From contig CAVRXH010000006.1 in NCBI GenBank assembly GCA_963725175.1, positions 5,939,580 to 6,003,579 of the forward strand: a stretch of 64,000 nucleotides of DNA, in the 5' to 3' direction. The notes under the pieces were generated by a model. The model was not told the origin of the DNA and searched no databases. It saw only the letters and a list, made by a program, of their open reading frames with translations. This document shows, piece by piece, positions 48,534 to 60,536 of the stretch. Made by a program: the position numbers and the translations under genes. The DNA is from an uncultured Actinomycetota bacterium. Its GTDB lineage: Bacteria; Actinomycetota; Actinomycetes; Streptosporangiales; Streptosporangiaceae. Each line of letters begins with the position of its first letter. Position 1 is the stretch's first letter.

Positions 48534-49976
48534 GTGCAGACTGGCGGCGTGCTGCTGACGATCTCCACGACTCATGCTCCGGCGTCCGATCTCGGGTACC
48601 TGCTGCATAAGCACCCCGGCCGGGTTCAGGCGTTCCCGCAGTCGGTGGGCACCGCGCACGTCTTCTACCCGGCGGTCAGCGACGAGCGCTGCACGGTGGC
48701 GCTGCTGCTGGAGGTTGACCCGGTGGCGCTGGCGCGCGGCCGGGCGGGCCGGCGCGGCGAGGCGTTCCCGCTGGGGCAGTACGTCAGCGACCGGCCCTAT
48801 GTCGCGTCCAGCATGCTCGCGATGGCGCTCAAGGATGTCTTCCGCACGGCGCTGACCGGGCGCTGCGACGCCCGTCCGGAACTGGCCGCCGCGGCGATCC
48901 CGCTGGAGATCGGAATCCCGGCGGTGCCCAGCCGCGGCGATGCGGACCTGCCCCGGCGGCTGTTCGGGCCGCTGGGCTGGCAGGTCGCGGCGGCTCGCGG
49001 GCCGCTTGACCCGGAGATCCCGGACTGGGGCGACTCGCCGTACGCCGATGTCCGGCTCACCGGCGAGCTCCGGCTGGCCGATGCCCTGAACCACCTGTAC
49101 GTGCTGCTCCCGGTGCTGGACGACGCCAAGCACTACTGGGTCAGCGAGGACGAGATCGGCAAGCTGCTCCGCGCGGGCGAGGGCTGGCTGCCGTCGCACC
49201 CGGAGCAGGAACTGATCACCCGGCGGTACCTGTCGCACCAGCGGGACCTGGCCAGGTCGGCGCTGGCCCGGCTGGCGGAGGCCGACGACGCCGGGCCGGC
49301 CGAGTTCGACAACGCCCCGGACGGCGCGGTCGCGCTCGATGACCCGCGGCGGCCAGGCGAGCTGGCCGGGCAGCGGCGGGCGGCGGTGCTCGCCGCGGTG
49401 CTGGCGTCGGGGGCGCGCCGGGTCGGTGACCTGGGCTGCGGCGAGGGCCTGCTGGCGGCGGACCTGCTGGCCGCGCCGGGCATCGAGCAGGTAGTGGCCA
49501 CCGACGTGTCGGCGCGGGCGCTCCAGATCGCCGCGCGGCGGCTGGGCCTGGACCAGATGCCGGACCGGCAGCGGCAGCGCCTGGAGATCTTCCAGTCGGC
49601 GCTGACCTACCGCGACGACCGGCTGGCGGGCCTGGACGCCGCCGTCCTGATGGAGGTGATCGAGCACATCGACCCGCCGCGGCTGGACACGCTGGAACGG
49701 GTGGTTCTCGGCCACGCGGCCCCGGCCACGGTGATCATCACCACCCCGAACGCGGAGCACAACGTGCTGTTCGACGGCCTGCGAGCGGGCGGGCTGCGGC
49801 ACGCGGACCACCGGTTCGAGTGGACGCGCGAGCAGTTCAGGGCCTGGGCGAGCCGGGCGGCGGCCGCCTACGGGTACACGGCCGCGTTCGCCGGAATCGG
49901 CCCCGACGACCCGCGGGTCGGGCCGCCGACCCAGCTCGCCATCCTGACCAGGACCGGGGCGGAGGTGCCCGCATGA
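48534..49976 (+). CDS. hen1: 3'-terminal RNA ribose 2'-O-methyltransferase Hen1 (bacterial RNA repair)
   Basis: N-terminal Hen1 ligase-activating domain (..LLTISTTHAPASDLGYLLHKHPGRVQ..) and C-terminal methyltransferase (..VGDLGCGEGLL.., ..LMEVIEHIDPPRL.., ..HRFEWTREQF..). The start may be GTG 48549. Confidence 0.85.
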   Translation: MQTGGVLLTISTTHAPASDLGYLLHKHPGRVQAFPQSVGTAHVFYPAVSDERCTVALLLEVDPVALARGRAGRRGEAFPLGQYVSDRPYVASSMLAMALKDVFRTALTGRCDARPELAAAAIPLEIGIPAVPSRGDADLPRRLFGPLGWQVAAARGPLDPEIPDWGDSPYADVRLTGELRLADALNHLYVLLPVLDDAKHYWVSEDEIGKLLRAGEGWLPSHPEQELITRRYLSHQRDLARSALARLAEADDAGPAEFDNAPDGAVALDDPRRPGELAGQRRAAVLAAVLASGARRVGDLGCGEGLLAADLLAAPGIEQVVATDVSARALQIAARRLGLDQMPDRQRQRLEIFQSALTYRDDRLAGLDAAVLMEVIEHIDPPRLDTLERVVLGHAAPATVIITTPNAEHNVLFDGLRAGGLRHADHRFEWTREQFRAWASRAAAAYGYTAAFAGIGPDDPRVGPPTQLAILTRTGAEVPA

Positions 49977-52558
49977 GCGCGGAACTGGGTGTCCCCGAGC
50001 TGAGCCTGATCGTGCTGATCGGCGTCACGGGGTCGGGAAAATCGACGTTCGCCCGGACGCGCTTCCGGCCGACTGAGGTCATCTCCTCGGACTTCTGCCG
50101 CGGCCTGGTCGCCGACGACGAGAACGACCAGTCGGCGACGCCCGAGGCCTTCGAGCTGCTCTCCTACATCGTCGGCAAGCGCCTGGCGGGGGGCCGGCTG
50201 ACCGTGGTGGACGCGACCAGCGTCCAGCCGGGCGCCCGCAGGCCGCTGGTCGCCCTGGCCAGGGAGCACGACGTGCTGCCGGTCGCGATCGTGCTGGATG
50301 TCCCCGAGGGCACCTGCGCGGCCAGGAACGCGGCGCGGCCGGACCGGGACTACGGCAGCCAGGTGGTCCGCCGCCAGCACGACCAGCTCCGGCGCGGTCT
50401 CAGCGGGCTGCGCCGGGAGGGCTTCCGCGCGGTCCACGTGCTGCGCGGCACGGCCGAGATCGACGCGGCGAGCATCACCAGGACCCGGCTGTACAACGAC
50501 CTGCGTGCCGAGAACGGGCCGTTCGACGTCATCGGCGACGTGCACGGCTGCCGCGCCGAGCTGGAAGGGCTGCTGGCCGAGCTGGGCTACGAGATCACCA
50601 GGGACGGCCAGGGCCGTGCCACGGGCGCGCACCACGAGGGCCGCCGGGCGGTCTTCGTCGGGGACCTGGTGGACCGGGGCCCGGACACTCCCGGCGTGCT
50701 GCGGCTGGTGCTGGGGATGGTCTCCGCCCAGGACGCGTACTGCGTGATGGGCAATCACGAGAGCAAGCTGCTGCGGGCCCTGCGCGGCAGCAAGGTCCAG
50801 GTCAGTCACGGCCTCGCGCAGTCGCTGGCGCAACTGGAGTCGGAGCCGCAGGAGTTCAGGATCGAGGTTGAGCGGTTCCTCGACGGGCTGATCAGCCACT
50901 ACGTCTTTGACGGCGGGCGGCTGGTGGTGGCGCACGCGGGCCTGATCGAGCGGTACCAGGGCCGCGCGTCGGGACGGGTCCGGTCGTTCTGCCTGTACGG
51001 CGACACCACGGGGGAGACCGACGAGTACGGGCTGCCGGTCCGCTACCCGTGGGCCCGCGACTATCGCGGCGCGGCGATGGTGCTGTACGGGCACACGCCG
51101 GTGCCCGCGCCGGAATGGGTCAACAACACGCTCTGCCTGGACACCGGCTGCGTGTTCGGCGGCCGCCTCACGGCGCTGCGCTATCCCGAGCGGGCGATCG
51201 TCTCGGTGCCCGCCACCGCCGTGCACTACGAGCCGGCCAGGCCGTTCCCGGCCAGCCCGGAGGCGGGCGGCGAGACCGGGCCGGAGGCCGGCGGGGCGGT
51301 GGCGGGCCGCCGGGAGCCCGACGTGCTCGACATCACCGACGTCACCGGGACGCGGGTCATCGAGACGGCGTACCAGCCGCGCATCGGGGTGCGCGAGGAG
51401 AACGCGGCGGCGGCGCTTGAGGTGATGAGCAGGTTCGCGATCGATCCCCGCTGGCTGGTGTACCTGCCGCCGACCATGAGCCCGGTCGCCAGCTCGGCCG
51501 AGCCCGGCCTGCTGGAGCACCCGGCGCAGGCGTTCGACTACTTCAGGACCGCCGGCGTCGGCCAGGTCGTGTGCGAGGAAAAGCACATGGGCTCGCGGGC
51601 GGTCGCGCTGGTCTGCCGGACGCCGGGCGAGGCCAGCGCCAGGTTCGGCGTGCCGGACGGCCAGGCGGGAGCGGTGTGGACCCGCACCGGGCGGGCGTTC
51701 TTCCGCGACGAGCTGACCGGGCAGTTCACCGGCCGGCTGCGGGAGGCAGCCGAACGGGCCGGGCTGTTCGTCGAGCTGGACACCCCCTGGCTGCTGTTCG
51801 ACGCCGAGCTGATGCCGTGGAGCGCCAAGGCCGGCCCGCTGCTGCGCGACCAGTACGCGGCGATCGGCGCGGCGGCCCGTGCCGCGCTCCCGGCCGCCGT
51901 GGCGACCCTGGAGCAGGGGGCAGCGGCCGGGCTGGACCTGGGCGAGTTGCTCGGCCGCATGAAGGGGCGGGAGGCCCGCGCCGCCGCGTTCACGGCTGCC
52001 TACCGGCGGTACTGCTGGCCGGTTGCGGAACTAGCTGGCATCAGGTTCGCGCCGTTCCAGCTCCTGGCCAGCGCGGGGGCGGTGCACCAGGAGCGGCCGC
52101 ACGGCTGGCACCTGGCCCTGGCCGACCGGCTGGCCGGCGCCGACCCGGAGCTGATCGCGGTCACCCGGCGGACTGTCGTGGACGTCACGGACCCAGGCTC
52201 GGTCGCGGCGGGGTGCGAGTGGTGGGCCCGGCTGACCGGGGACGGTGGCGAGGGCATGGTGGTCAAGCCGGCCCGGAACCTGGCCAGGGACCGCAAGGGG
52301 CTGGTGCAGCCGGGCCTGAAGGTGCGCGGCCGGGAGTACCTGCGGCTGATCTACGGCCCCGACTACACCGAGCCGGCGAACCTGGAACGGCTGCGCACCC
52401 GGAGCCTGGGCCACAAGCGCTCGCTGGCGCTGCGCGAGTACGCGCTCGGCCTGGAGGCGCTGGACCGGCTAGCCAGGGGCGAGCCGCTGTGGCGAGTACA
52501 CCAGTGCGTCTTCGCCGTCCTGGCCCTCGAATCCGAGCCAGTCGACCCGCGCCTGTAG
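49973..52558 (+). CDS. pnkp: Polynucleotide kinase-phosphatase-ligase Pnkp (bacterial RNA repair)
   Basis: ATGA overlap with hen1. Kinase P-loop GVTGSGKST. Metallophosphatase motifs GDVHGC, GDLVDRGP and GNHE. A C-terminal ligase-like domain is present. 861 aa. Confidence 0.88.
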   Translation: MSAELGVPELSLIVLIGVTGSGKSTFARTRFRPTEVISSDFCRGLVADDENDQSATPEAFELLSYIVGKRLAGGRLTVVDATSVQPGARRPLVALAREHDVLPVAIVLDVPEGTCAARNAARPDRDYGSQVVRRQHDQLRRGLSGLRREGFRAVHVLRGTAEIDAASITRTRLYNDLRAENGPFDVIGDVHGCRAELEGLLAELGYEITRDGQGRATGAHHEGRRAVFVGDLVDRGPDTPGVLRLVLGMVSAQDAYCVMGNHESKLLRALRGSKVQVSHGLAQSLAQLESEPQEFRIEVERFLDGLISHYVFDGGRLVVAHAGLIERYQGRASGRVRSFCLYGDTTGETDEYGLPVRYPWARDYRGAAMVLYGHTPVPAPEWVNNTLCLDTGCVFGGRLTALRYPERAIVSVPATAVHYEPARPFPASPEAGGETGPEAGGAVAGRREPDVLDITDVTGTRVIETAYQPRIGVREENAAAALEVMSRFAIDPRWLVYLPPTMSPVASSAEPGLLEHPAQAFDYFRTAGVGQVVCEEKHMGSRAVALVCRTPGEASARFGVPDGQAGAVWTRTGRAFFRDELTGQFTGRLREAAERAGLFVELDTPWLLFDAELMPWSAKAGPLLRDQYAAIGAAARAALPAAVATLEQGAAAGLDLGELLGRMKGREARAAAFTAAYRRYCWPVAELAGIRFAPFQLLASAGAVHQERPHGWHLALADRLAGADPELIAVTRRTVVDVTDPGSVAAGCEWWARLTGDGGEGMVVKPARNLARDRKGLVQPGLKVRGREYLRLIYGPDYTEPANLERLRTRSLGHKRSLALREYALGLEALDRLARGEPLWRVHQCVFAVLALESEPVDPRL

Positions 52559-52724
52559 TCGTCAGCGTGCTCGCGCGCCGCGAACCTCCCGCATTCCCGC
52601 GCGCCGTGGACCGATCGCCCCGTCATCCGCCAACTGGAAAGGAAAACCCGGCCCACAAGGAGCCGGGTGGTATATAGGGCAACTATAACGCGCTTACCGT
52701 GAGCCTGCTTCCCGGTGACGGGAA

Positions 52725-53456
52725 CTACCAGCCATCTGGGCGCTGGTACTGGCCAGCCGGATTCGGGAGCTGATGGTTCTTGAGGTCGGCAGCTGTCAGT
52801 CTGGCCCACCAGTGCCGCCCGGCCCCGGCTGCGGGATCTCCGCGCAAATCACCAGCCAGGTAGTTGCGCGAAGGATTGATCAGGCCGACCGGGACGTGCA
52901 GCCGGGCTTGCTCGACGGGGAACCGCAGGTCACTGTCATTGGAGATGACAAGTGCCGCGTCGACAGCACCGCCCAGAACGTCCAGCAGCAGGTGCGCTGC
53001 CACGTTGACGTCAGAGCCCTTTTCCTCGCGATTGGCATACGACACCATGAATACCGCATCCGAGACAGGGCCGCCTCGGCCGTCCTGGACCATCACCGGC
53101 CAGGTGGGTCCGACCAGTTCGGGCCGCCCCTGCTGGTCTTTCACCGCGAGCGGGGCAGTCTTCACCCGAGCCACATAAGTTCCATACTCGATGTGGTCGA
53201 CGCTGCCCGTCGCTAGCAGGGCCTTGAGGTAGACGTCCTGATCAGCCTGCCCGGAGGGGTTTGAGACGCCGTCGATCCGAGCGGTGCGGTACACCACCCT
53301 GTCCACCTGCGCGCCGCGCCAGCTCGCTCGCCGCCCTGTCAGGTCCGACGCCAGCGTGCGCAGGTCCAGCCAGCGCCATCCCGGAGTGCTCCGGCCGCAC
53401 AGGCCTCGGGCACCGTAGTACACATTGAAGCCATCCACGTACACACCGACGCGCAT
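52725..53456 (-). CDS. NYN-domain (LabA/DUF88-like) predicted ribonuclease
   Basis: [15 protein letters not shown].. (first acidic motif), ..[16 protein letters not shown].. and ..[10 protein letters not shown].. follow the NYN pattern. GC content looks lower than in neighbouring genes. Confidence 0.75.
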
Positions 53457-53722
53457 TGACGGAAGCTAGCAGCAGCTACCGACACGCGCTCGCAGTAACG
53501 GGCGGGTGGCCCGGTGGTGCGCGAAGCTGAGCAAGGGAGGCCGCACGGTAGCGGCGATTTGTCCCGGCGCCCGCTCCCGGCCGTTTGGTTTGGTTACGTT
53601 GTGTGAAAGTGGCAAAGCTATGTGTAGTCATAGCAGTGCCGGCATCGTGCTGATCCGCTGATCTGCCTTACGAGCGTCGGCGCGAGAGAAGTCAGCTGCT
53701 GCCGCGCTTGTGAGGACGCGCC

Positions 53723-54040
53723 GTGCCCGGACCACTCGCCGCCGCGACCCGCGTCATCGGCGGTCACTCGGCCAAGGTGGCGCTCTCGCTGTCCGCGCGG
53801 CAGATTGTCATCATCTGCGTCATCCTGGGCGCGTTCGCCGTCCTGGTGATCCTGCCGGTGCTGGGCGGCATGCTGGTGGACGTGGTCAGCGCTGGCGCGG
53901 CCAAGTTCGGCGTGGCGGTGTTCTTCATGGGCCTGGGCACGCTGGGCCTCGGGCTGATCGCCAGCGTGCAGTTTCTCACCGTCATCGGGGCCTGCCTGGT
54001 CGGCGCCGTCGTCCTCGGCGCGATCTTCGACAACTACTAG
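53723..54040 (+). CDS. Small membrane protein (3 predicted TM segments)
   Basis: Strong GC3 bias throughout. Sequence ..IVIICVILGAFAVLVILPVLGG.., ..FGVAVFFMGLGTLGLGLIA.., ..VIGACLVGAVVLGAIF... Confidence 0.65.
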   Translation: MPGPLAAATRVIGGHSAKVALSLSARQIVIICVILGAFAVLVILPVLGGMLVDVVSAGAAKFGVAVFFMGLGTLGLGLIASVQFLTVIGACLVGAVVLGAIFDNY

Positions 54041-54142
54041 CCCCCTCGCGCTGCCCGCGTCGGCGTCCATTTCTTAAAGATTTGGTAAAGGGCGCTGACC
54101 GGCCGAAACTTGCGGCATCGCTCCTGCATACTCGATGCGGTG

Positions 54143-54562
54143 ATGACTCTTCGGATTCAAATAGTCACAAAGCGTAGTATTCGCTGCGCCCTTGCCTCGA
54201 CGGGGCTGGCTGCCGCCCTGGCGCTGACCGGCTGCGGCGGAAGTTCCGCGCCGTCAGCGAGCGCCCAGCCGAGCACCAGCTCCGCGTCTAGCACGGCGCA
54301 CGCGGCCGCCGACTCGGTGGTCATTCACATGTTCGCGTTCCACCCCGGCACCCTGACGGTGTCGCCGGGCGCGACGGTCAAGGTCCGCAACGCGGACTCG
54401 ACGACGCACACGCTGACGGACAAGGCCAATCCGAAGCTGTTCAGCACCGGCGATATCGGCCCCGGTCAGACCAGGACCTTCAAGGCGCCGACCAAGCCCG
54501 GAAGCTATCCGTTCTTCTGCCAGATCCACCAGTACATGACCGGGACCCTCGTCGTGAGCTAG
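54143..54562 (+). CDS. Cupredoxin (amicyanin/plastocyanin-like blue-copper) lipoprotein
   Basis: Lipobox LALTGC. Type-1 copper ligand pattern His (..STTHTL..) plus C-x2-H-x2-M (FFCQIHQYM). Confidence 0.75.
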   Translation: MTLRIQIVTKRSIRCALASTGLAAALALTGCGGSSAPSASAQPSTSSASSTAHAAADSVVIHMFAFHPGTLTVSPGATVKVRNADSTTHTLTDKANPKLFSTGDIGPGQTRTFKAPTKPGSYPFFCQIHQYMTGTLVVS

Positions 54563-54596
54563 CCGATCAGGGCCTCCGCAACACGAGGGAGGGCAC

Positions 54597-55469
54597 ATGG
54601 AACTTGACGAGGCCGCGCTGCGCGGGCTGACCGAGGAATCGCGAGATACCCATGCCGACGCGATCCGCGCGATCTCCGAACCTCTGGACGACATGGTCGA
54701 CCTCGGCCGCCAGGCGAGGTCGCGAAACGCCCTGGACCCGGACGAGAACGCCAGCTTCGCCGGCCTGAACCGGCGGCAGCTCGCGGCCACCGCCCGGCGG
54801 GGCGGCGGCCTGCTCGCCGCTACCGGAGTCCTCGCGGCGCTCGCCGACTTCATCGGCAGCCCCGCCTTCGCCGCGTCGGGAACCGACATCCAGGTGCTGC
54901 AGACGGCCTCCTCGATCGAGGTCCTGGCCATCTCCACCTACAAGACCGCGCTCACCCTCCCGTACATCGGCGGCAGCTCCGCGAACCCGGTCATCAAGGC
55001 CTTCGCGACCACCACGAAGAAGCAGCACCAGGACCACCTGGCGGCCTTCCAGGCCGCGACCACCGCGCTGGGCGGGAAGAAGCAGACCAAGCCCGACCCG
55101 AAGTTCGTGCCGGTGGTGGACAAGGCCGTCAAGTCGATCACCAAGGCCTCGCCGGCCAAGGGATCGCTGCTGGTCGTCGGCCTGGCCCTGGAGCTGGAGA
55201 ACATCGCGGCGGAGACCTATGTCAACAACATGAGCCTGCTCGCCGACGCGAACGCGAAGAAGGTCACCGCGAGCATCATGGGCGTGGAGGCTCAGCACGT
55301 CGCCATCCTGCTGGCGGTCCGCGCCCTCCTGAAGGCGGGCGACGCGGCCGACATCACGCTGCCCCCGCCGACGGCCAAGCTCCCGGCCGCCGCCGGCAAG
55401 GTCGGCTTCCCGAACGCCTTCTACCCGACGAGCAGCGCTGCCCCGGCAGCTCAGGGAGCAGTGAAATGA
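54597..55469 (+). CDS. Ferritin-like-domain protein with an internal twin-arginine signal
   Basis: ..NRRQLAATARRGGGLLAATGVLAALA.. is followed by ..LQTASSIEVLAISTY.., ..HQDHLAAF.. and ..LELENIAAETY..MGVEAQHVAIL.. (di-metal ferritin-like helices). Confidence 0.7.
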   Translation: MELDEAALRGLTEESRDTHADAIRAISEPLDDMVDLGRQARSRNALDPDENASFAGLNRRQLAATARRGGGLLAATGVLAALADFIGSPAFAASGTDIQVLQTASSIEVLAISTYKTALTLPYIGGSSANPVIKAFATTTKKQHQDHLAAFQAATTALGGKKQTKPDPKFVPVVDKAVKSITKASPAKGSLLVVGLALELENIAAETYVNNMSLLADANAKKVTASIMGVEAQHVAILLAVRALLKAGDAADITLPPPTAKLPAAAGKVGFPNAFYPTSSAAPAAQGAVK

Positions 55470-56305
55470 CCGCCATCGATCCCGGCTCGCACCTGTCAGA
55501 CGGCGAGATCCGCAGCATGACCCAGGATCTGGACGCCCTGCATCACGACCTCACCCTGCCCGCCCTGACGGACAGCCTCAGCGAGTGGGCGGAGGAGATC
55601 CACGAGCGCGATGCCTCCGGCGAGGACGAGCAAGAGGATGCCGCGCAGTCGGCGTTCCTCGCCCGCCGCAGGTTCCTGGTCGCCACGGGCGGCATCGCGG
55701 GCGCGGCCCTCATCGCGGCCTGCGGCAGCTCCGCGGCGCCCCAGTCAGGCTCCAGCCCGTCCGGCTCCGCGCAGGCGACGAGCGGCGGCGAGGGGCAGCA
55801 GCTCAGCGGCGACCTGCGGGTGGTCGCGATGGCCGCGAGCCTGGAGAACTCCGGCATCGCGACCTACAAGTCCGGCCTCAAGGCGGCCAAGGCCGGCAAG
55901 CTCGGCACGGTACCGCCGGCCATCGTCACCTTCGTGGAGACGGTGATGGGCCAGCACCAGGACCATCAGAAGGCGTGGAACGCCGTGCTCACCTCGGCGG
56001 GCAAGCAGCCGGTGACCACCGTTGATCCGGTGATCCAGCCCACCATCAACACGGCTTTCGGGAAGGTGACCACGGTCACCGGGCTGGCCAAGCTTGCCCT
56101 GCAGGTCGAGAACATCGCGGGCGAGACCTATCAGAACGGGCTGTCGGTCATCAAGAGCCCGGCCGGGATCAAGACCGCCGCCTCGATCCAGCCAGTCGAG
56201 TTCCAGCACGCCGCGATCCTGTCCTACGTCCTCGGCAAGTACCCGGTGCCCAGCGCCTTCACCGGCACCACCCTCGCCAGGCCGCCGAGCGACTACCGCA
56301 CCTAG
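55466..56305 (+). CDS. Ferritin-like-domain Tat lipoprotein (paralogue of the previous gene)
   Basis: ATGA overlap. ..ARRRFLVATGGIAGAALIAAC.. is followed by ..ASLENSGIATY.., ..HQDHQKAW.., ..LQVENIAGETY.. and ..VEFQHAAIL... Confidence 0.7.
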   Translation: MTAIDPGSHLSDGEIRSMTQDLDALHHDLTLPALTDSLSEWAEEIHERDASGEDEQEDAAQSAFLARRRFLVATGGIAGAALIAACGSSAAPQSGSSPSGSAQATSGGEGQQLSGDLRVVAMAASLENSGIATYKSGLKAAKAGKLGTVPPAIVTFVETVMGQHQDHQKAWNAVLTSAGKQPVTTVDPVIQPTINTAFGKVTTVTGLAKLALQVENIAGETYQNGLSVIKSPAGIKTAASIQPVEFQHAAILSYVLGKYPVPSAFTGTTLARPPSDYRT

Positions 56306-56408
56306 GGGCACGGCGAAGCGGGCGGTGGCCGGCAGCGGATCGTGAGCGCTGACGGCCGCCGCCCGCCGCGCGCCGCAGCGGAATGCAGCGCGGTGTCATG
56401 CGCAGATG

Positions 56409-56468
56409 AGCAACCAAGGGTTGCGCTTGAGGTCACGCCTCGCTACAGTGATGTGCAACCAAACGTTG
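56409..56468. promoter_or_regulatory. Two near-identical 15-bp palindromes upstream of the SRPBCC-ArsR operon (candidate ArsR operators)
   Basis: GCAACcaaggGTTGC (56409-56423) and GCAACcaaacGTTGC (56454-56468), with centres 45 bp apart. Confidence 0.65.
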
Positions 56469-56494
56469 CGAAAAGTGGCCGAGAGGCGGGGGCT

Positions 56495-56956
56495 ATGGAA
56501 TACGGCTCGATCGAGCGGGAGATCCGGATCGACGCGCCGCCGGAGATCGTCTTCGACGTGGTGAGCGACCCGGTGCACGTCCAGCAGTGGTGGCCGGACG
56601 AGGCCAGCTACGAGGCGGTGCCGGGCAGCTCGGGGGAGATCGTCTTCATCAGGGACGGCGAGCGGGTCCCGATGGCCTTCCAGGTGGTCGACGCGGTCCC
56701 GCCCCGGCTGTTCTCGTTCCGCTGGACGCAGCCAGACGGCGAGCCCGCCAGGCCGGACAACTCTTTCCTGGTGACCTTCGATCTGGAGCCGGCCGGCGGC
56801 GGCACGCTGCTGCGGATGACCGAGACGGGCTTCCGGGAGCGCGGCTGGGAGGCCGCCGTCCTGGAGGAGGCCTACCGGGACCACGCCAGCGGCTGGGACC
56901 ACTACCTGCCGCGGCTGGCGCCCTACATCCAGAAGTACCTCGAATCGGCGCGATGA
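56495..56956 (+). CDS. SRPBCC-family (Aha1/BPI-like) protein
   Basis: MEYGSIEREIRIDAPPEIVFDVVSDPVHVQQWWPDE.. is the typical start of ArsR-linked SRPBCC proteins. Confidence 0.8.
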   Translation: MEYGSIEREIRIDAPPEIVFDVVSDPVHVQQWWPDEASYEAVPGSSGEIVFIRDGERVPMAFQVVDAVPPRLFSFRWTQPDGEPARPDNSFLVTFDLEPAGGGTLLRMTETGFRERGWEAAVLEEAYRDHASGWDHYLPRLAPYIQKYLESAR

Positions 56957-57348
56957 GCAGCGTCGTGACCAACACCGGCGCGTTGAGCACCGTGGACGAC
57001 GCGCTCTGGTCCGCGGTGGGCGACCCGACCCGGCGGCGGATGCTCGACCTGCTGCTCGCCGAGGGCAGCGGGACCGCGACCAGCCTGAGCGCGCGGCTCC
57101 CGGTGACCAGGCAGGCGGTCGCCAAGCACCTCGTGGTGCTGGACCGGGCCGGCCTGGTGCGCGGCGTCACCGCCGGGCGGGAGAAGCAGTACCGAGTCGA
57201 CTCCGCGCAGCTCGCGCGGGCCGTCGCGCAGCTCGCCGAGGTGGGCGCCAGCTGGGACCGGCGGCTGCGGCGGATCAAGGAGATCGCCGAGGCCATCGGG
57301 GAGCGGGCCCGCGAGCAGGCCGAGAAGGACGATGGGAAGGAGCAGTGA
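56953..57348 (+). CDS. ArsR/SmtB-family transcriptional regulator
   Basis: ATGA overlap. Sequence ..VGDPTRRRMLDLLLAEGSGTATSLSARLPVTRQAVAKHLVVLDRAGLV... Confidence 0.85.
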   Translation: MSSVVTNTGALSTVDDALWSAVGDPTRRRMLDLLLAEGSGTATSLSARLPVTRQAVAKHLVVLDRAGLVRGVTAGREKQYRVDSAQLARAVAQLAEVGASWDRRLRRIKEIAEAIGERAREQAEKDDGKEQ

Positions 57349-57716: not shown

Positions 57717-59087
57717 GTGACGCTGAGTAACTATGATGACGCTCACAGTTACGCACGGTCAGAGCGTGGCTGCGGGCGGTGGCGCAGACGGGGGAACGGC
57801 GTGTTCAGTGTTCGGGGGGCTAGCAAGCAGGCGGGCCCGGTCAAGGAGCGGCCTGCGACTCTGCCGGTGACGGGTGAGCCAGGGCACGGGCCCGGCCTGC
57901 CGCCGGAACCGCCACAGGGCGGGCCCGGCCGGCCAGGCGGGCACCAGCGCAAGATGATCATCCTGGCCGGCGCCTGCGCCCTCGCGGTGATCGCCGCCGC
58001 GGCCGGCTACGCGCTGACGCACACCGGCGGCTCGTCCGCTGGCTCCGGCAAGAGCGGCGGCGGCAGCGGCCTGGTGGCCGCGCTGCGGGTCGCGTCGGTG
58101 ACCCCGGTCACGGGCGACCGGCGCGTCGACGGCAGCGCCCCCATCATCATCCAGTTCAACGCCCCGCTGGCGGCCGGCTCGCCGATGCCGGTCATCACCC
58201 CGCCGGTCCGCGGCACCTGGACCAGGGTCGCCAACGACGCGACGTTCATCCCGGCAACGGCGTTCGCGCCCTACCACCGCTACACCGTCAGGGTCCCGGC
58301 CGGCGCCTCGGGCGTCCGGATCGCGGGCGGCAAGACGCTGGCCAGCCCCGTGGTGAGTCACTTCACCACCCGGGGCTACTCGCCGCTGCGGATGGCGCAG
58401 CTGCTCAGTCAGCTCGGTTACCTGCCACTGACCTGGTCGCCGGCTACCGGTGGCGCGGCCCGTTCAGAGGAAATGAACGGGGGCCTGCCCTCCAGCCAGC
58501 AGGCACTGGCCTTCGACCCGCCGGCCGGCTCGTTCAGCTGGCAGGCCGCCTACCCGGCGCTGCTCACCGATCAGTGGCAGCCCGGCCAGTGGAACGTGGT
58601 CGTCAAGGGCGCGGTCATGGCGTTCCAGTCCGAGCACCACCTGACCATCGACGGCAGCACGGGCCCGGCGCTGTGGGGCGCGCTGTTCCGCGCGGTCCGC
58701 GCCGACCAGCGCAACGCCAACGGCTACACCTACGCGGTGGCCAGCAAGTCGCTGCCGGAGACGCTGACGATCTGGCACGACGGGCGGCAGGTCTTCCGCA
58801 GCCTGGCCAACACGGGCATCCCGGTGTCGCCGACGGTGGACGGCACGTTCCCGGTCTATGAGAAGTTCCGGTTCCAGATCATGCGCGGCGTCAATCCGGA
58901 CGGCAGTTCCTACGCCGACCCGGTGTCATTCGTCTCCTATTTCAACGGCGGCGACGCGGTGCACTACTTCCCGCGCGGCTCCTACGGATTCCAGCAGAGC
59001 CTGGGCTGCGTGGAGCTGCCGTACAGCTCGGCCGAGCAGGCTTACCCGTACCTCACCTACGGGAGCCTGGTCACAGTCGCCGGCTGA
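57717..59087 (+). CDS. L,D-transpeptidase-family protein (TM anchor, Ig-like region, PG-binding domain, YkuD-like domain)
   Basis: PG_binding-like ..VKGAVMAFQSEHHLTIDGSTGPALWGAL.. and catalytic region ..GDAVHYFPRGSYGFQQSLGCVELP... The start is uncertain, with GTG 57801 as an alternative. Confidence 0.75.
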   Translation: MTLSNYDDAHSYARSERGCGRWRRRGNGVFSVRGASKQAGPVKERPATLPVTGEPGHGPGLPPEPPQGGPGRPGGHQRKMIILAGACALAVIAAAAGYALTHTGGSSAGSGKSGGGSGLVAALRVASVTPVTGDRRVDGSAPIIIQFNAPLAAGSPMPVITPPVRGTWTRVANDATFIPATAFAPYHRYTVRVPAGASGVRIAGGKTLASPVVSHFTTRGYSPLRMAQLLSQLGYLPLTWSPATGGAARSEEMNGGLPSSQQALAFDPPAGSFSWQAAYPALLTDQWQPGQWNVVVKGAVMAFQSEHHLTIDGSTGPALWGALFRAVRADQRNANGYTYAVASKSLPETLTIWHDGRQVFRSLANTGIPVSPTVDGTFPVYEKFRFQIMRGVNPDGSSYADPVSFVSYFNGGDAVHYFPRGSYGFQQSLGCVELPYSSAEQAYPYLTYGSLVTVAG

Positions 59088-59342: not shown

Positions 59343-60536
59343 GTGCGTAGGCGAGGGAGCGCACTGTTGTCTGTTCTGGGTACCTTGCGTGGTCGTATCG
59401 CGATCCTGGGTGGCGTGATCGTCGTCTTGCTTGCCGCCGGGACCTGGATAGCGCTCACCCATGCGTCCGCCCAGCCGACCGTCCCCGTCGCGGCTGACGG
59501 GCACGCCTCGGCGCCGCCCAAGGCGACCCCGCTGAGCGTGGTGTCGGTCACGCCGGCCGAGCACGCCAAGGAAGTCAACGGCGCGGCCCCGGTCAAGATC
59601 ACGTTCTCCGCCGCCCTCGCCTCGGACTCGCCGATGCCGGAGGTGAAGCCGCACGTCGCCGGGCACTGGCAGAAGGCCGGCGCCGACGCGGTCGAGTTCG
59701 TCCCCGCCCGCGGCTTCGGCGAGTGGACGCACGTCAAGGTGCACATCCCCGGCGGCCCGGCGGGCCTGCAGGCCTCCGACGGCGGCCAGCTGGCGCACGG
59801 CAAGACGGTGAAGTTCGAGACGGGCGGGTATTCGCCCGAACGGCTCGCCGAGGTGCTCGCCCAGCTCGGCTACCTGCCGCTCACCTGGACCGCGGCCTCC
59901 GGCCAGGCTGCGCCGGGCATGGGCGACTCCGGCCAGGAGGCCGCGGCGTTCTCGCCCCCCACCGGTGACTACGCCTGGAAGCCCGGCTACCCGCACCACC
60001 TGCGGGACTACTGGGACAACGGGTCGCCAAGCGGCCTGATCGTCAGGGGCGCCGTGATGGCCTTCGAGTCCCAGCACGACCTCACCCTGGACGGCATCGC
60101 CGGCAAGGAGGTCTGGAAGTCGCTGCTCAAGGCCGCGACCAAGGACGAGGCCAACAGCTACGGCTACACCTACGCGCTGGCCAGCGAGCACCTGCCGGAG
60201 ACCCTCTCGGTCTGGCACGACGGCCACCGGATCCTGCACGGGCTGGCCAACACCGGCATCCCGGCGGCGCCCACCACGCTCGGCACCGCCCCGGTGTACC
60301 TGAAGTACAAGTACCAGGTGATGCGCGGCAAGAACCCGGACGGCAGCAAGTACGCCGACCCGGTCTGGTACGTGTCCTACTTCCGGGCGGGCGAGGCGGT
60401 GCACTACTTCGACCGCGCCTCCTACGGGTTCCAGCAGAGCCTGGGCTGCGTCGAGCTGCCGATGTCGGAGGCCAAGTACATCTGGCCGTACCTGACCTTC
60501 GGCACGCTGGTCACGGTCACGACCGCGAAGCCCTGA
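59343..60536 (+). CDS. L,D-transpeptidase-family protein (paralogue of the previous gene)
   Basis: Same architecture: ..VRGAVMAFESQHDLTLDGIAGKEVWKSL.. and ..GEAVHYFDRASYGFQQSLGCVELP... Confidence 0.78.
   Translation: MRRRGSALLSVLGTLRGRIAILGGVIVVLLAAGTWIALTHASAQPTVPVAADGHASAPPKATPLSVVSVTPAEHAKEVNGAAPVKITFSAALASDSPMPEVKPHVAGHWQKAGADAVEFVPARGFGEWTHVKVHIPGGPAGLQASDGGQLAHGKTVKFETGGYSPERLAEVLAQLGYLPLTWTAASGQAAPGMGDSGQEAAAFSPPTGDYAWKPGYPHHLRDYWDNGSPSGLIVRGAVMAFESQHDLTLDGIAGKEVWKSLLKAATKDEANSYGYTYALASEHLPETLSVWHDGHRILHGLANTGIPAAPTTLGTAPVYLKYKYQVMRGKNPDGSKYADPVWYVSYFRAGEAVHYFDRASYGFQQSLGCVELPMSEAKYIWPYLTFGTLVTVTTAKP

Follow-up and report, generated by a model that had tools for sequence, protein, structure and literature searches.

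Rubrerythrin joins a dinuclear metal site in a four-helix bundle, with its Glu-x6-Tyr pairs, to a small, dedicated one-electron metalloprotein, and this combination is the working analogy for the system analysed here: a module of three adjacent genes, encoding a cupredoxin and two paralogous ferritin-like proteins (fer1 and fer2), in a 64,000-nucleotide stretch (positions 5,939,580 to 6,003,579 of contig CAVRXH010000006.1; hereafter the window) from an uncultured actinomycete of the family Streptosporangiaceae. Rubrerythrin is cytoplasmic and is served by the FeCys4 centre of rubredoxin, not by copper; the module has, in contrast, two paralogous subunits, predicted export by the twin-arginine translocation (Tat) pathway with a lipoprotein signal, and a His for one bridging Glu. 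From ferroxidase centres of the bacterioferritin and Dps-like type the module proteins differ in that they appear to be exported and lipid-anchored, carry a His-x-x-His motif on helix B, and have in addition an N-terminal extension and a conserved C-terminal tail of ~40 residues. The same Pfam family, Ferritin_2, contains RvFeMP-1 of the tardigrade Ramazzottius (its sole solved member) and DRB0118 of Deinococcus (PMC11616004); these are Zn/Mg hydrolases without a redox partner, and the module proteins differ from them also in lacking an IgG-like domain. In the EfeUOB and FtrABCD systems an extracytoplasmic protein of the cupredoxin fold likewise stands beside a helical metal-binding protein, and EfeB is exported by Tat; the cupredoxin of the module is, by comparison, a free-standing type-1 copper protein.

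The domain families are already known, and so, in outline, is the principle of serving a di-metal bundle by an electron carrier of its own. In the literature searched we found no description of such a module, nor of a cupredoxin as partner, of an extracytoplasmic setting with Tat and lipoprotein signals, of the pairing of paralogs or of the pre-Tat extension, and an earlier first-pass annotation, made from the letters of the window, had also known of no characterised system of this composition. The reading that we favour, tentatively and at somewhat below an even chance, is that the products would form an exported, heterodimeric di-metal oxidant reductase, rubrerythrin-like and served by a dedicated cupredoxin. 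The genes and the extension of fer1 are placed as follows:

54143-54562, + strand: cupredoxin lipoprotein gene, 139 aa from ATG 54143 (Pfam PF13473, PF00127)
54597-55469, + strand: fer1, Ferritin_2 protein, 290 aa (Pfam PF13668)
54597-54740, + strand: N-terminal extension of fer1 (aa 1-48), a predicted long helix with conserved positions
55466-56305, + strand: fer2, Ferritin_2 lipoprotein, 279 aa (Pfam PF13668), ATGA-coupled to fer1

More than 1500 homologues of fer1 are present in a large protein collection, the best 120 of which are full length (~290 aa); the named ones come from Trebonia sp., Streptosporangiaceae or Acidimicrobiales. Scanning a single genome for each species yielded 370 loci, and 80 of these, together with one further locus, make up the set of 81 examined here (individual loci are cited as L with a number). 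The 80 are all metagenome-assembled genomes (MAGs): eleven are Trebonia-like, at 78-87% fer1 identity, and the remainder are mostly Acidimicrobiales or Acidimicrobiaceae, at 53-61%. The habitats, where the source is stated, are palsa, bog, spruce peat and other soils. The cupredoxin gene adjoins the ferritin-like pair in 75 of the 79 assessable loci, in two main gene orders (cupredoxin-fer1-fer2 in 60 loci, fer1-fer2-cupredoxin in 14) and once divergently from the pair; no cupredoxin stands beside the pair in four loci, and two loci are cut by a contig end. Recurring in this way at fer1 identities of 85% to ~53%, the three-gene arrangement exceeds chance. The end of fer1 and the start of fer2 share 4 bases in 58 of 76 loci and a single base in 14 more (72 of 76 together), which suggests translational coupling. 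In the window the fer2 start overlaps the fer1 stop as ATGA, with a ribosome-binding site (AGGGAG) ahead, and GGGAGGG stands ahead of the fer1 start. Clustering of the open reading frames (ORFs) of the 81 loci into families revealed, beyond the pair and the cupredoxin, no family in more than 21 loci; this clustering missed an extracytoplasmic function (ECF) sigma factor pair and a 260-aa protein, both found later by direct tblastn and described below.

The cupredoxin most likely starts at ATG 54143 (MTLRIQ...), not at TTG 54110 of the mechanically called ORF 54110-54562. From this ATG it reads MTLRIQIVTKRSIRCALASTGLAAALALTGC, a Sec-type lipoprotein signal with the lipobox LTGC (Cys31 counted from the same ATG). 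Two Pfam profiles recognise the protein, PF13473 with 50.9 bits (cut-off 27, E 1.8e-13) and PF00127 with 26.3 bits (cut-off 21.2, E 1e-5), and its type-1 copper ligand set is complete (His89, Cys126-x2-His129-x2-Met132), as the first-pass annotation had read it. The His and the C-x2-H-x2-M motif are kept in all 74 complete orthologs, and a lipobox, judged at motif level, in 63 of 75. Profile and ligand set together place the protein, by its sequence features, among the type-1 (blue) copper cupredoxins. Among solved structures, the tethered cupredoxin domains of copper nitrite reductases come closest to it (6hbe, 9cck; E ~1e-9), followed by plastocyanins. Cupredoxin domains fused to copper nitrite reductases serve as built-in electron donors, and on the strength of this kinship we group the protein with the electron-transfer cupredoxins rather than with copper chaperones.

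Both ferritin-like proteins match Ferritin_2 (PF13668) well above the cut-off of 24.7 bits (fer1 63.3, fer2 67.1), in agreement with the earlier description of two paralogous ferritin-like proteins with twin-arginine motifs. In fer1 the extension (aa 1-48) is followed by the signal (aa ~52-93), the four-helix bundle (aa 96-250) and a conserved C-terminal tail; fer2 has an extension of aa 1-52, the lipobox cysteine at position 86 and a bundle at aa ~113-262. The last ~40 residues of fer1 (window 55344-55469; LPAAAGSVGFPxAF...P.EGAV) are conserved even in distant relatives, and proteins of the fer2 type have a different conserved C-terminal tail. Alignments of 81 fer1 and 75 fer2 orthologs point to the following candidate metal-binding motifs:

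Helix A, Glu-x6-Tyr: E108 and Y115 in fer1, E127 and Y134 in fer2
Helix B, Gln-His-x-x-His: H144 and H147 in fer1, H164 and H167 in fer2
Helix C, Glu-x6-Tyr: E201 and Y208 in fer1, E215 and Y222 in fer2
Helix D, Glu-x-Gln-His: E231 and H234 in fer1, E245 and H248 in fer2

The two paralogs therefore keep the same six candidate ligands (Glu, His-x-x-His, Glu, Glu-x-x-His) and the two Glu-x6-Tyr motifs. Across 86 diverse relatives Y115, H144 and E201 (fer1 numbering) are invariant, and E108, H147, E231, H234 and Y208 are conserved in at least 90%. A structure model of fer1 built on these 86 sequences reached a pLDDT of 84 overall, above 94 in the bundle and 84-95 in the C-terminal tail (a shallow alignment had given 50), and all six candidate ligands lie mid-helix in it. 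The model is most like bacterioferritin. This likeness is structural only, as PF00210 (Ferritin) matches neither fer1 nor fer2; Rubrerythrin (PF02915) stays below threshold (14.8 bits, cut-off 22.8), searches of PDB sequences, started from fer1 or from a profile of 11 sequences, returned nothing useful, and mature fer1 and fer2 contain no Cys-x-x-Cys pairs. The bacterioferritin site of E. coli consists of E18, E51, H54, E94, E127 and H130, with Y25; compared with it by motif and not by superposition, the ferritin-like pair presumably has a His for the bridging Glu of helix B.

The top Foldseek match of the fer1 model is RvFeMP-1, at 13-14% identity. Given that phosphatase activity is the only biochemistry recorded for the Ferritin_2 family, the pair might be a non-redox hydrolase, that is, a secreted dinuclear metallo-phosphatase with a cupredoxin co-transcribed for an unrelated reason. 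The ligands of RvFeMP-1 are E51, E90, H93, E132, D135 and D162 (PMC11616004). By motif position, fer1 shows E108 / H144-x-x-H147 / E201-x-x-A204 / E231-x-x-H234, and fer2 the same pattern, so that three positions of the FeMP set (Glu / Glu-x-x-His / Glu-x-x-Asp / Asp) differ: His-x-x-His replaces Glu-x-x-His in helix B, no Asp stands at +3 in helix C, and helix D carries Glu-x-x-His. By these motifs fer1 and fer2 are Ferritin_2 members outside the characterised phosphatase subgroup of the family. The low identity to RvFeMP-1 likewise speaks against a hydrolase, which would moreover leave the 94% linkage to an intact type-1 copper protein unexplained, and we regard this explanation as improbable.

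The export signals differ between the two paralogs. In fer2 an invariant Tat motif (R67, R68, x, F70, L71; RRRFL in the window) precedes the lipobox IAAC with Cys86; the lipobox and the ATGA coupling of the first-pass annotation were both borne out. RR-x-F-L occurs in all 75 fer2 orthologs; 55 have a lipobox and the rest have sites of the signal peptidase I type, as judged at motif level. The score of fer2 with the Tat profile TIGR01409 is below threshold (13.5, cut-off 16.7). In the window, fer1 has RR at positions 59-60 and 67-68, a hydrophobic region and an AFA cleavage site. A hydrophobic region with A-x-A is present in 81 of 81 fer1 orthologs; a twin-arginine is found in 45 of them, KR or RK in 8 and neither in 28. 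Twin-arginine, hydrophobic region and cleavage site together mark the proteins as putative Tat substrates. The situation resembles the export of Tat hitch-hikers (small and large hydrogenase subunits; the MelC1-MelC2 tyrosinase of Streptomyces), since one partner has an invariant twin-arginine and the other is without it in 36 of 81 loci. It differs from them in that both partners of the module keep a hydrophobic region and a cleavage site and, in addition, both carry a homologous extension of 45-50 residues on the cytoplasmic side, for which we found no known counterpart.

Dependence on Tat is supported indirectly by a recurrent linkage to tat genes: tatC lies within 6 kb of the pair in 12 of the 81 loci, in at least five arrangements. 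The tatA and/or tatC genes near the pair were located at L009:3186-4430 (+), at L083:3795-4918 (-) and in 10 further loci; no tat gene was found in the window. The extracytoplasmic location proposed earlier is thus favoured both by the signal peptides and by tatC or tatA beside the pair, in several lineages and in varied gene orders. Judged from their signal sequences, the products are exported and membrane-anchored.

The segments ahead of the twin-arginines are acidic (14 D/E versus 6 K/R in fer1, 17 D/E versus 2 K/R in fer2), and the first-pass annotation, which had pointed to them, had named later start codons as the finding that would remove them. Such mis-called long ORFs with true starts downstream, or a chance juxtaposition of the genes, would be suggested by the internal Met in each extension (M33 in fer1, M18 in fer2) and by the many long ORFs that high-GC genomes yield. 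The data contradict this. Protein-level conservation of the 45-50 residues that precede the signals extends over the 81 fer1 and 75 fer2 orthologs, to ~53% identity, and includes invariant residues; L11, E13, S15, D17 and D21 are conserved in at least 95% of the fer1 set, which has an H/Q-x-D motif, and E14, T19, H26, D28 and P32 are conserved in fer2. The two extensions are homologous to one another (hhalign 93%, E 2.7e-7) around a common H/Q-x-D core, which implies that they are older than the duplication and not artefacts of start-codon choice. Ribosome-binding sites stand ahead of the upstream ATGs, codon-position GC gives coding support to both extensions as well as to the ORFs of the locus (GC3 0.84-0.94; extensions 0.86-0.89, that of fer1 0.86), and the synteny counts given above speak against mere juxtaposition. 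Mis-calling or chance therefore has a negligible probability, and by these features the acidic pre-Tat segments are translated.

The distribution of the extension was followed with an exhaustive HMMER search (974 clusters at 50% identity, E up to 0.001). The best 150 include 112 complete fer1-like representatives; 63 have the extension, and the other 49 have ordinary short Tat signals instead. Its presence in only part of the fer1-like family indicates an addition within a sub-clade. A search with a profile of the isolated extension returned just 11 short fragments and gave no evidence of its presence on other families, a word-indexed search being weak for such a query. We also considered whether only the extension-bearing clade has lost the twin-arginine of fer1. 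Among the representatives of the 50%-identity clusters RR is missing from 12 of 63 that have the extension and from 4 of 49 that do not, a modest difference; these four are probably truncated. The correlation is suggestive only. In the fer1 extension a helix is predicted at residues 5-42 with pLDDT 65-76. Possible roles of the extensions are helix pairing that couples a weak and a strong signal peptide, docking of a chaperone, or metal sensing. A more elaborate proposal, which we consider speculative and quite unlikely, is that they constitute a novel type of pre-export module, in which the cytoplasmic H-x-D helices would pair (maybe around a metal) and tie the weak signal peptide of fer1 to the strong Tat signal of fer2, so that only the properly assembled, metal-loaded heterodimer would be exported. 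It would act then as a hitherto unknown di-iron enzyme, wired to respiration by the cupredoxin, that reduces peroxide or oxidises Fe(II) on the surface of uncultured Actinomycetota abundant in acid soils.

Relatives without the extension for which the genetic context is available (L082, L083, L084, L086 and L089) again occur as pairs, in which both proteins have a Tat signal, followed in the fer1-like one by a signal peptidase I site and in the fer2-like one by a lipobox. In L083, tatA-tatC are situated directly and divergently beside such a pair. A cupredoxin is found in none of these five pairs. Linked to extension-free pairs, in two gene orders, is a small secreted Cys-rich protein with an H-H-E-C-M pattern and without a Pfam match (L086:144-650 (+), L089:5402-5869 (+), L090:5402-5869 (+)); its two copies (L086 versus L089/L090) are 37% identical (E 1e-34). 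This protein may take the place of the cupredoxin; that some pairs have a cupredoxin and others a small Cys/His/Met protein would fit an exchange of redox partners.

Many related loci contain a regulatory gene pair. Genes for a sigma factor and an anti-sigma factor were identified in 45 of 83 loci, in 38 of them divergent from and just upstream of the module, with a gap of ~100-310 bp in 32 of the 38. The best NCBIfam match of the sigma factor is SigK (E 5e-43; 147 bits, cut-off 226), and the anti-sigma factor has zf-HC2 and RskA domains. A motif, ATCC[GA]-N14/15-[CT]CGAA, is directed towards the module in 26 and towards the sigma gene in 21 of the 32 intergenic regions (for example L042:5228-5437), against an expectation of 0.5 and a maximum of 3 in shuffled sequences. 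The same motif facing both genes is read as a common ECF-type promoter, which would imply autoregulation with the module as a direct target. In 43 of 81 loci it stands no more than 350 bp ahead of the module, even in some where no sigma gene is in view, and all 43 fall outside the Trebonia-like group. Systems of the SigK/RskA type (ECF18/19) have been described as redox-sensitive, with the inducing signal unknown (PMC7826278, PMC7509140). The arrangement recalls the mycobacterial mpt83-sigK-rskA cassette of this type, as in Acidimicrobiales a SigK-like/RskA-like pair stands beside genes of exported lipoproteins and the same motif occurs in both promoter regions, consistent with autoregulation; the target genes are unrelated, the mycobacterial one encoding a FAS1-domain lipoprotein. 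In the window, a scan of the + strand from 52000 to 57000 revealed no ATCC[GA] motif, an ECF homologue is absent from the whole 64 kb, and the other Trebonia-like loci are likewise without sigma pair and motif.

Upstream of the cupredoxin gene the Trebonia-like loci have another candidate element. Five of ten such loci (L003, L004, L005, L008 and L009) have, ~70 nt ahead of the cupredoxin start, a direct repeat resembling GTAAC-N6-G[TC]AAC, against 0.14 expected from shuffled sequences, and its spacing of ~11 bp is that of sites for OmpR/GlnR-type regulators. The window copy (54074-54089) is degenerate and fails the strict pattern. The repeat is possibly a site for an activator of the response-regulator type, but it is a lead only, because the pattern was defined after looking at the data.

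Taken step by step, the favoured reading of the module as an oxidant reductase runs as follows. The cupredoxin, fer1 and fer2 genes would form one operon. The two ferritin-like proteins would be paralogous subunits of a hetero-oligomer, most simply a heterodimer, as suggested by the translational coupling, the paralogy and the dimeric state of characterised Ferritin_2 proteins: RvFeMP-1 is a dimer in its crystals, and dimers predominate for DRB0118 in solution (PMC11616004). The subunits would fold and take up a two-metal cofactor, most likely iron, in the cytoplasm and be exported by Tat, with the invariant twin-arginine lipoprotein signal of fer2 as the main targeting signal. Then fer2 would be lipid-anchored on the outer face of the membrane and fer1 freed from its signal peptide at the AFA site, while the cupredoxin, exported separately by Sec as a lipoprotein, would gain its copper outside the cell and, as a dedicated carrier, shuttle single electrons between the ferritin-like centre and the respiratory chain. 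The most likely chemistry would be the reduction of an oxidant (peroxide or an oxygen species) at the cell surface, which would make the whole an extracytoplasmic analogue of rubrerythrin, with a cupredoxin replacing rubredoxin. In favour count the synteny, the conserved metal and copper sites, the Tat features, the dimers known in Ferritin_2 and the stress-type regulation seen in relatives. The data show directly the domain families, the signal sequences, the conservation of ligands, the synteny and, in relatives, the linkage to tat genes and an ECF sigma factor; from these we infer the formation of the heterodimer, the identity of the metal, the transfer of electrons between the cupredoxin and the pair together with its direction, and the substrate.

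Several points weigh against this proposal. The extension-free pairs lack a cupredoxin, so that the core function does not strictly need one. The helix-B His-x-x-His replaces the Glu-x-x-His of di-iron sites, and the site may thus not be a classical carboxylate-bridged di-iron centre. The sole characterised Ferritin_2 enzymes are Zn/Mg phosphatases and not redox enzymes (PMC11616004). Finally, the argument from a stress regulon is borrowed from Acidimicrobiales; the lineage of the window is without the ECF pair and the promoter-like motif.

The same site and fold, with the Glu-x6-Tyr motif, resemble the ferroxidase centre of bacterioferritin, which raises the alternative of an extracytoplasmic Fe(II) oxidase. 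Fe2+ would then be oxidised at the cell surface and electrons would pass to the cupredoxin and on to a terminal oxidase, in a flow opposite to that of an oxidant reductase; in acidic soils and peat rich in iron this would serve to detoxify the metal or to gain energy. The carriers fit such a habitat, being Acidimicrobiales and Trebonia-like MAGs from the palsa, bog, spruce peat and other soils mentioned above, and blue-copper proteins such as rusticyanin carry electrons in acidophilic iron oxidisers. Ferroxidase centres, however, normally use O2 directly and need no carrier, and the clustering of the 81 loci revealed no iron transporter, cytochrome or mineral-handling gene conserved nearby. 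On balance we judge iron oxidation to be unlikely.

The comparison with EfeO/EfeB iron uptake drawn by the first-pass annotation was not supported. No permease of the EfeU/FTR1 type adjoins the module in the window or turned up in the clustering of the 81 loci, although no probe search was aimed at permeases; no DyP peroxidase is conserved in the 81 loci, a DyP gene being present in one locus only, 4.6 kb away; and the NCBIfam EfeO model gave 17 bits against a cut-off of 270. An EfeUOB-like uptake system was rejected because neither the window nor the clustering showed a permease.

Helical-bundle copper-binding CopM and DUF305 proteins are among the structural neighbours of the fer1 model, and the candidate site is rich in His (three His and three Glu). 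Both observations would suit a role in metal buffering or delivery, in which the pair would store or hand over copper, iron or manganese outside the cell, for instance to load the cupredoxin or to take a surplus of metal out of circulation, and the ECF system would answer metal stress. HbpS of Streptomyces, reported to be a Tat-secreted iron-binding protective protein (PMC3754957), offers a precedent. One dinuclear site per subunit would, however, provide little storage capacity, there is no Cys-rich or Met-rich storage motif in the proteins, pairs without a cupredoxin exist, and Tat export suggests that the metal is loaded inside and not captured outside. Buffering or delivery is therefore, in our view, an improbable function.

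Were the module confirmed as an oxidant reductase, it would be the first redox enzyme of the ferritin fold shown to act beyond the cytoplasmic membrane and to have a blue-copper carrier of its own. Its value today is that of a well-delimited, strongly conserved candidate from Acidimicrobiales and Trebonia-like Actinomycetota, groups that turn up repeatedly among the MAGs of peat, permafrost and acid soils. The module is also a natural test case for the export of hetero-oligomers by Tat, with an invariant twin-arginine in one partner, a decaying one in the other and a pre-signal extension on both, and the link to a SigK/RskA-type ECF pair supplies a poorly understood sigma family with a defined target operon in a second actinobacterial class.

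The first-pass annotation had described a cluster of four co-oriented genes, the first encoding a protein with three transmembrane helices. All four ORFs are present in one orientation in the ORF listing, and codon-position GC supports each of them as coding. Upstream of the cupredoxin gene the following features were recorded:

53723-54040, + strand: 105-aa hydrophobic ORF, coding by GC3 0.94 and GC2 0.43
54048-54066, + strand: terminator-like hairpin with a T-rich tail, in the gap that separates the membrane ORF from the cupredoxin gene
54074-54089, + strand: degenerate direct repeat TTAAA-N6-GTAAA, upstream of the cupredoxin gene

Overlapping hydrophobic stretches at residues ~16-105 of the membrane ORF were detected in a 19-residue hydropathy scan, and its three helices are a reading of this profile by eye. 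The ORF has no Pfam or NCBIfam match, and tblastn gave no match in the 81 related loci. As a homologue adjoins no other copy of the module, it was rejected as a member, and the conserved unit consists of three genes, not four: the linkage survey upheld the association of the cupredoxin with both ferritin-like genes (75 of 79), and not that of the membrane protein. The gap of ~100 bp between the hydrophobic ORF and the cupredoxin start contains the hairpin, which is weak on its own, since a consensus scan found 2 such hairpins against 1.3 expected.

A different hydrophobic ORF of ~170 aa, unrelated to the 105-aa ORF and without a Pfam match, directly adjoins the module in four Trebonia-like loci (L002:5055-5591 (+), L011:7738-8220 (+), L006 and L012), upstream in one and downstream in three. 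In Acidimicrobiales, a cytoplasmic protein of ~260 aa (for example L042:7809-8591 (+)) is encoded next to the module in 28 of the 81 loci, in at least three arrangements. It has two Glu-x-x-His motifs (EEFWH, QEGRH) and no match in Pfam, NCBIfam or PDB; it could act in maturation or be a di-iron protein that has escaped recognition. In 17 Acidimicrobiaceae loci (for example L042:8686-9192 (+)) the gene of a DUF4395 membrane protein (PF14340), which has a cluster of Cys residues at its C-terminus, lies ~1 kb downstream of the module and adjoins that of a low-molecular-weight phosphatase; this linkage is probably local synteny.

The genes that flank the module in the window are unrelated to it: Pnkp, an NYN-like gene, SRPBCC/AHSA1, an ArsR-type regulator and two L,D-transpeptidases. 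Pnkp (49820-52558 (+)) is a complete bacterial RNA-repair protein that combines a kinase, a phosphatase and a ligase domain (PNKP_ligase E 2e-178), and the NYN-like gene (52725-53456) lies on the opposite strand to it. The L,D-transpeptidases (57717-59087 (+) and 59343-60536 (+)) are secreted tandem paralogs with Big_5, PG_binding_1 and YkuD domains, and are situated downstream of the SRPBCC/ArsR gene pair.

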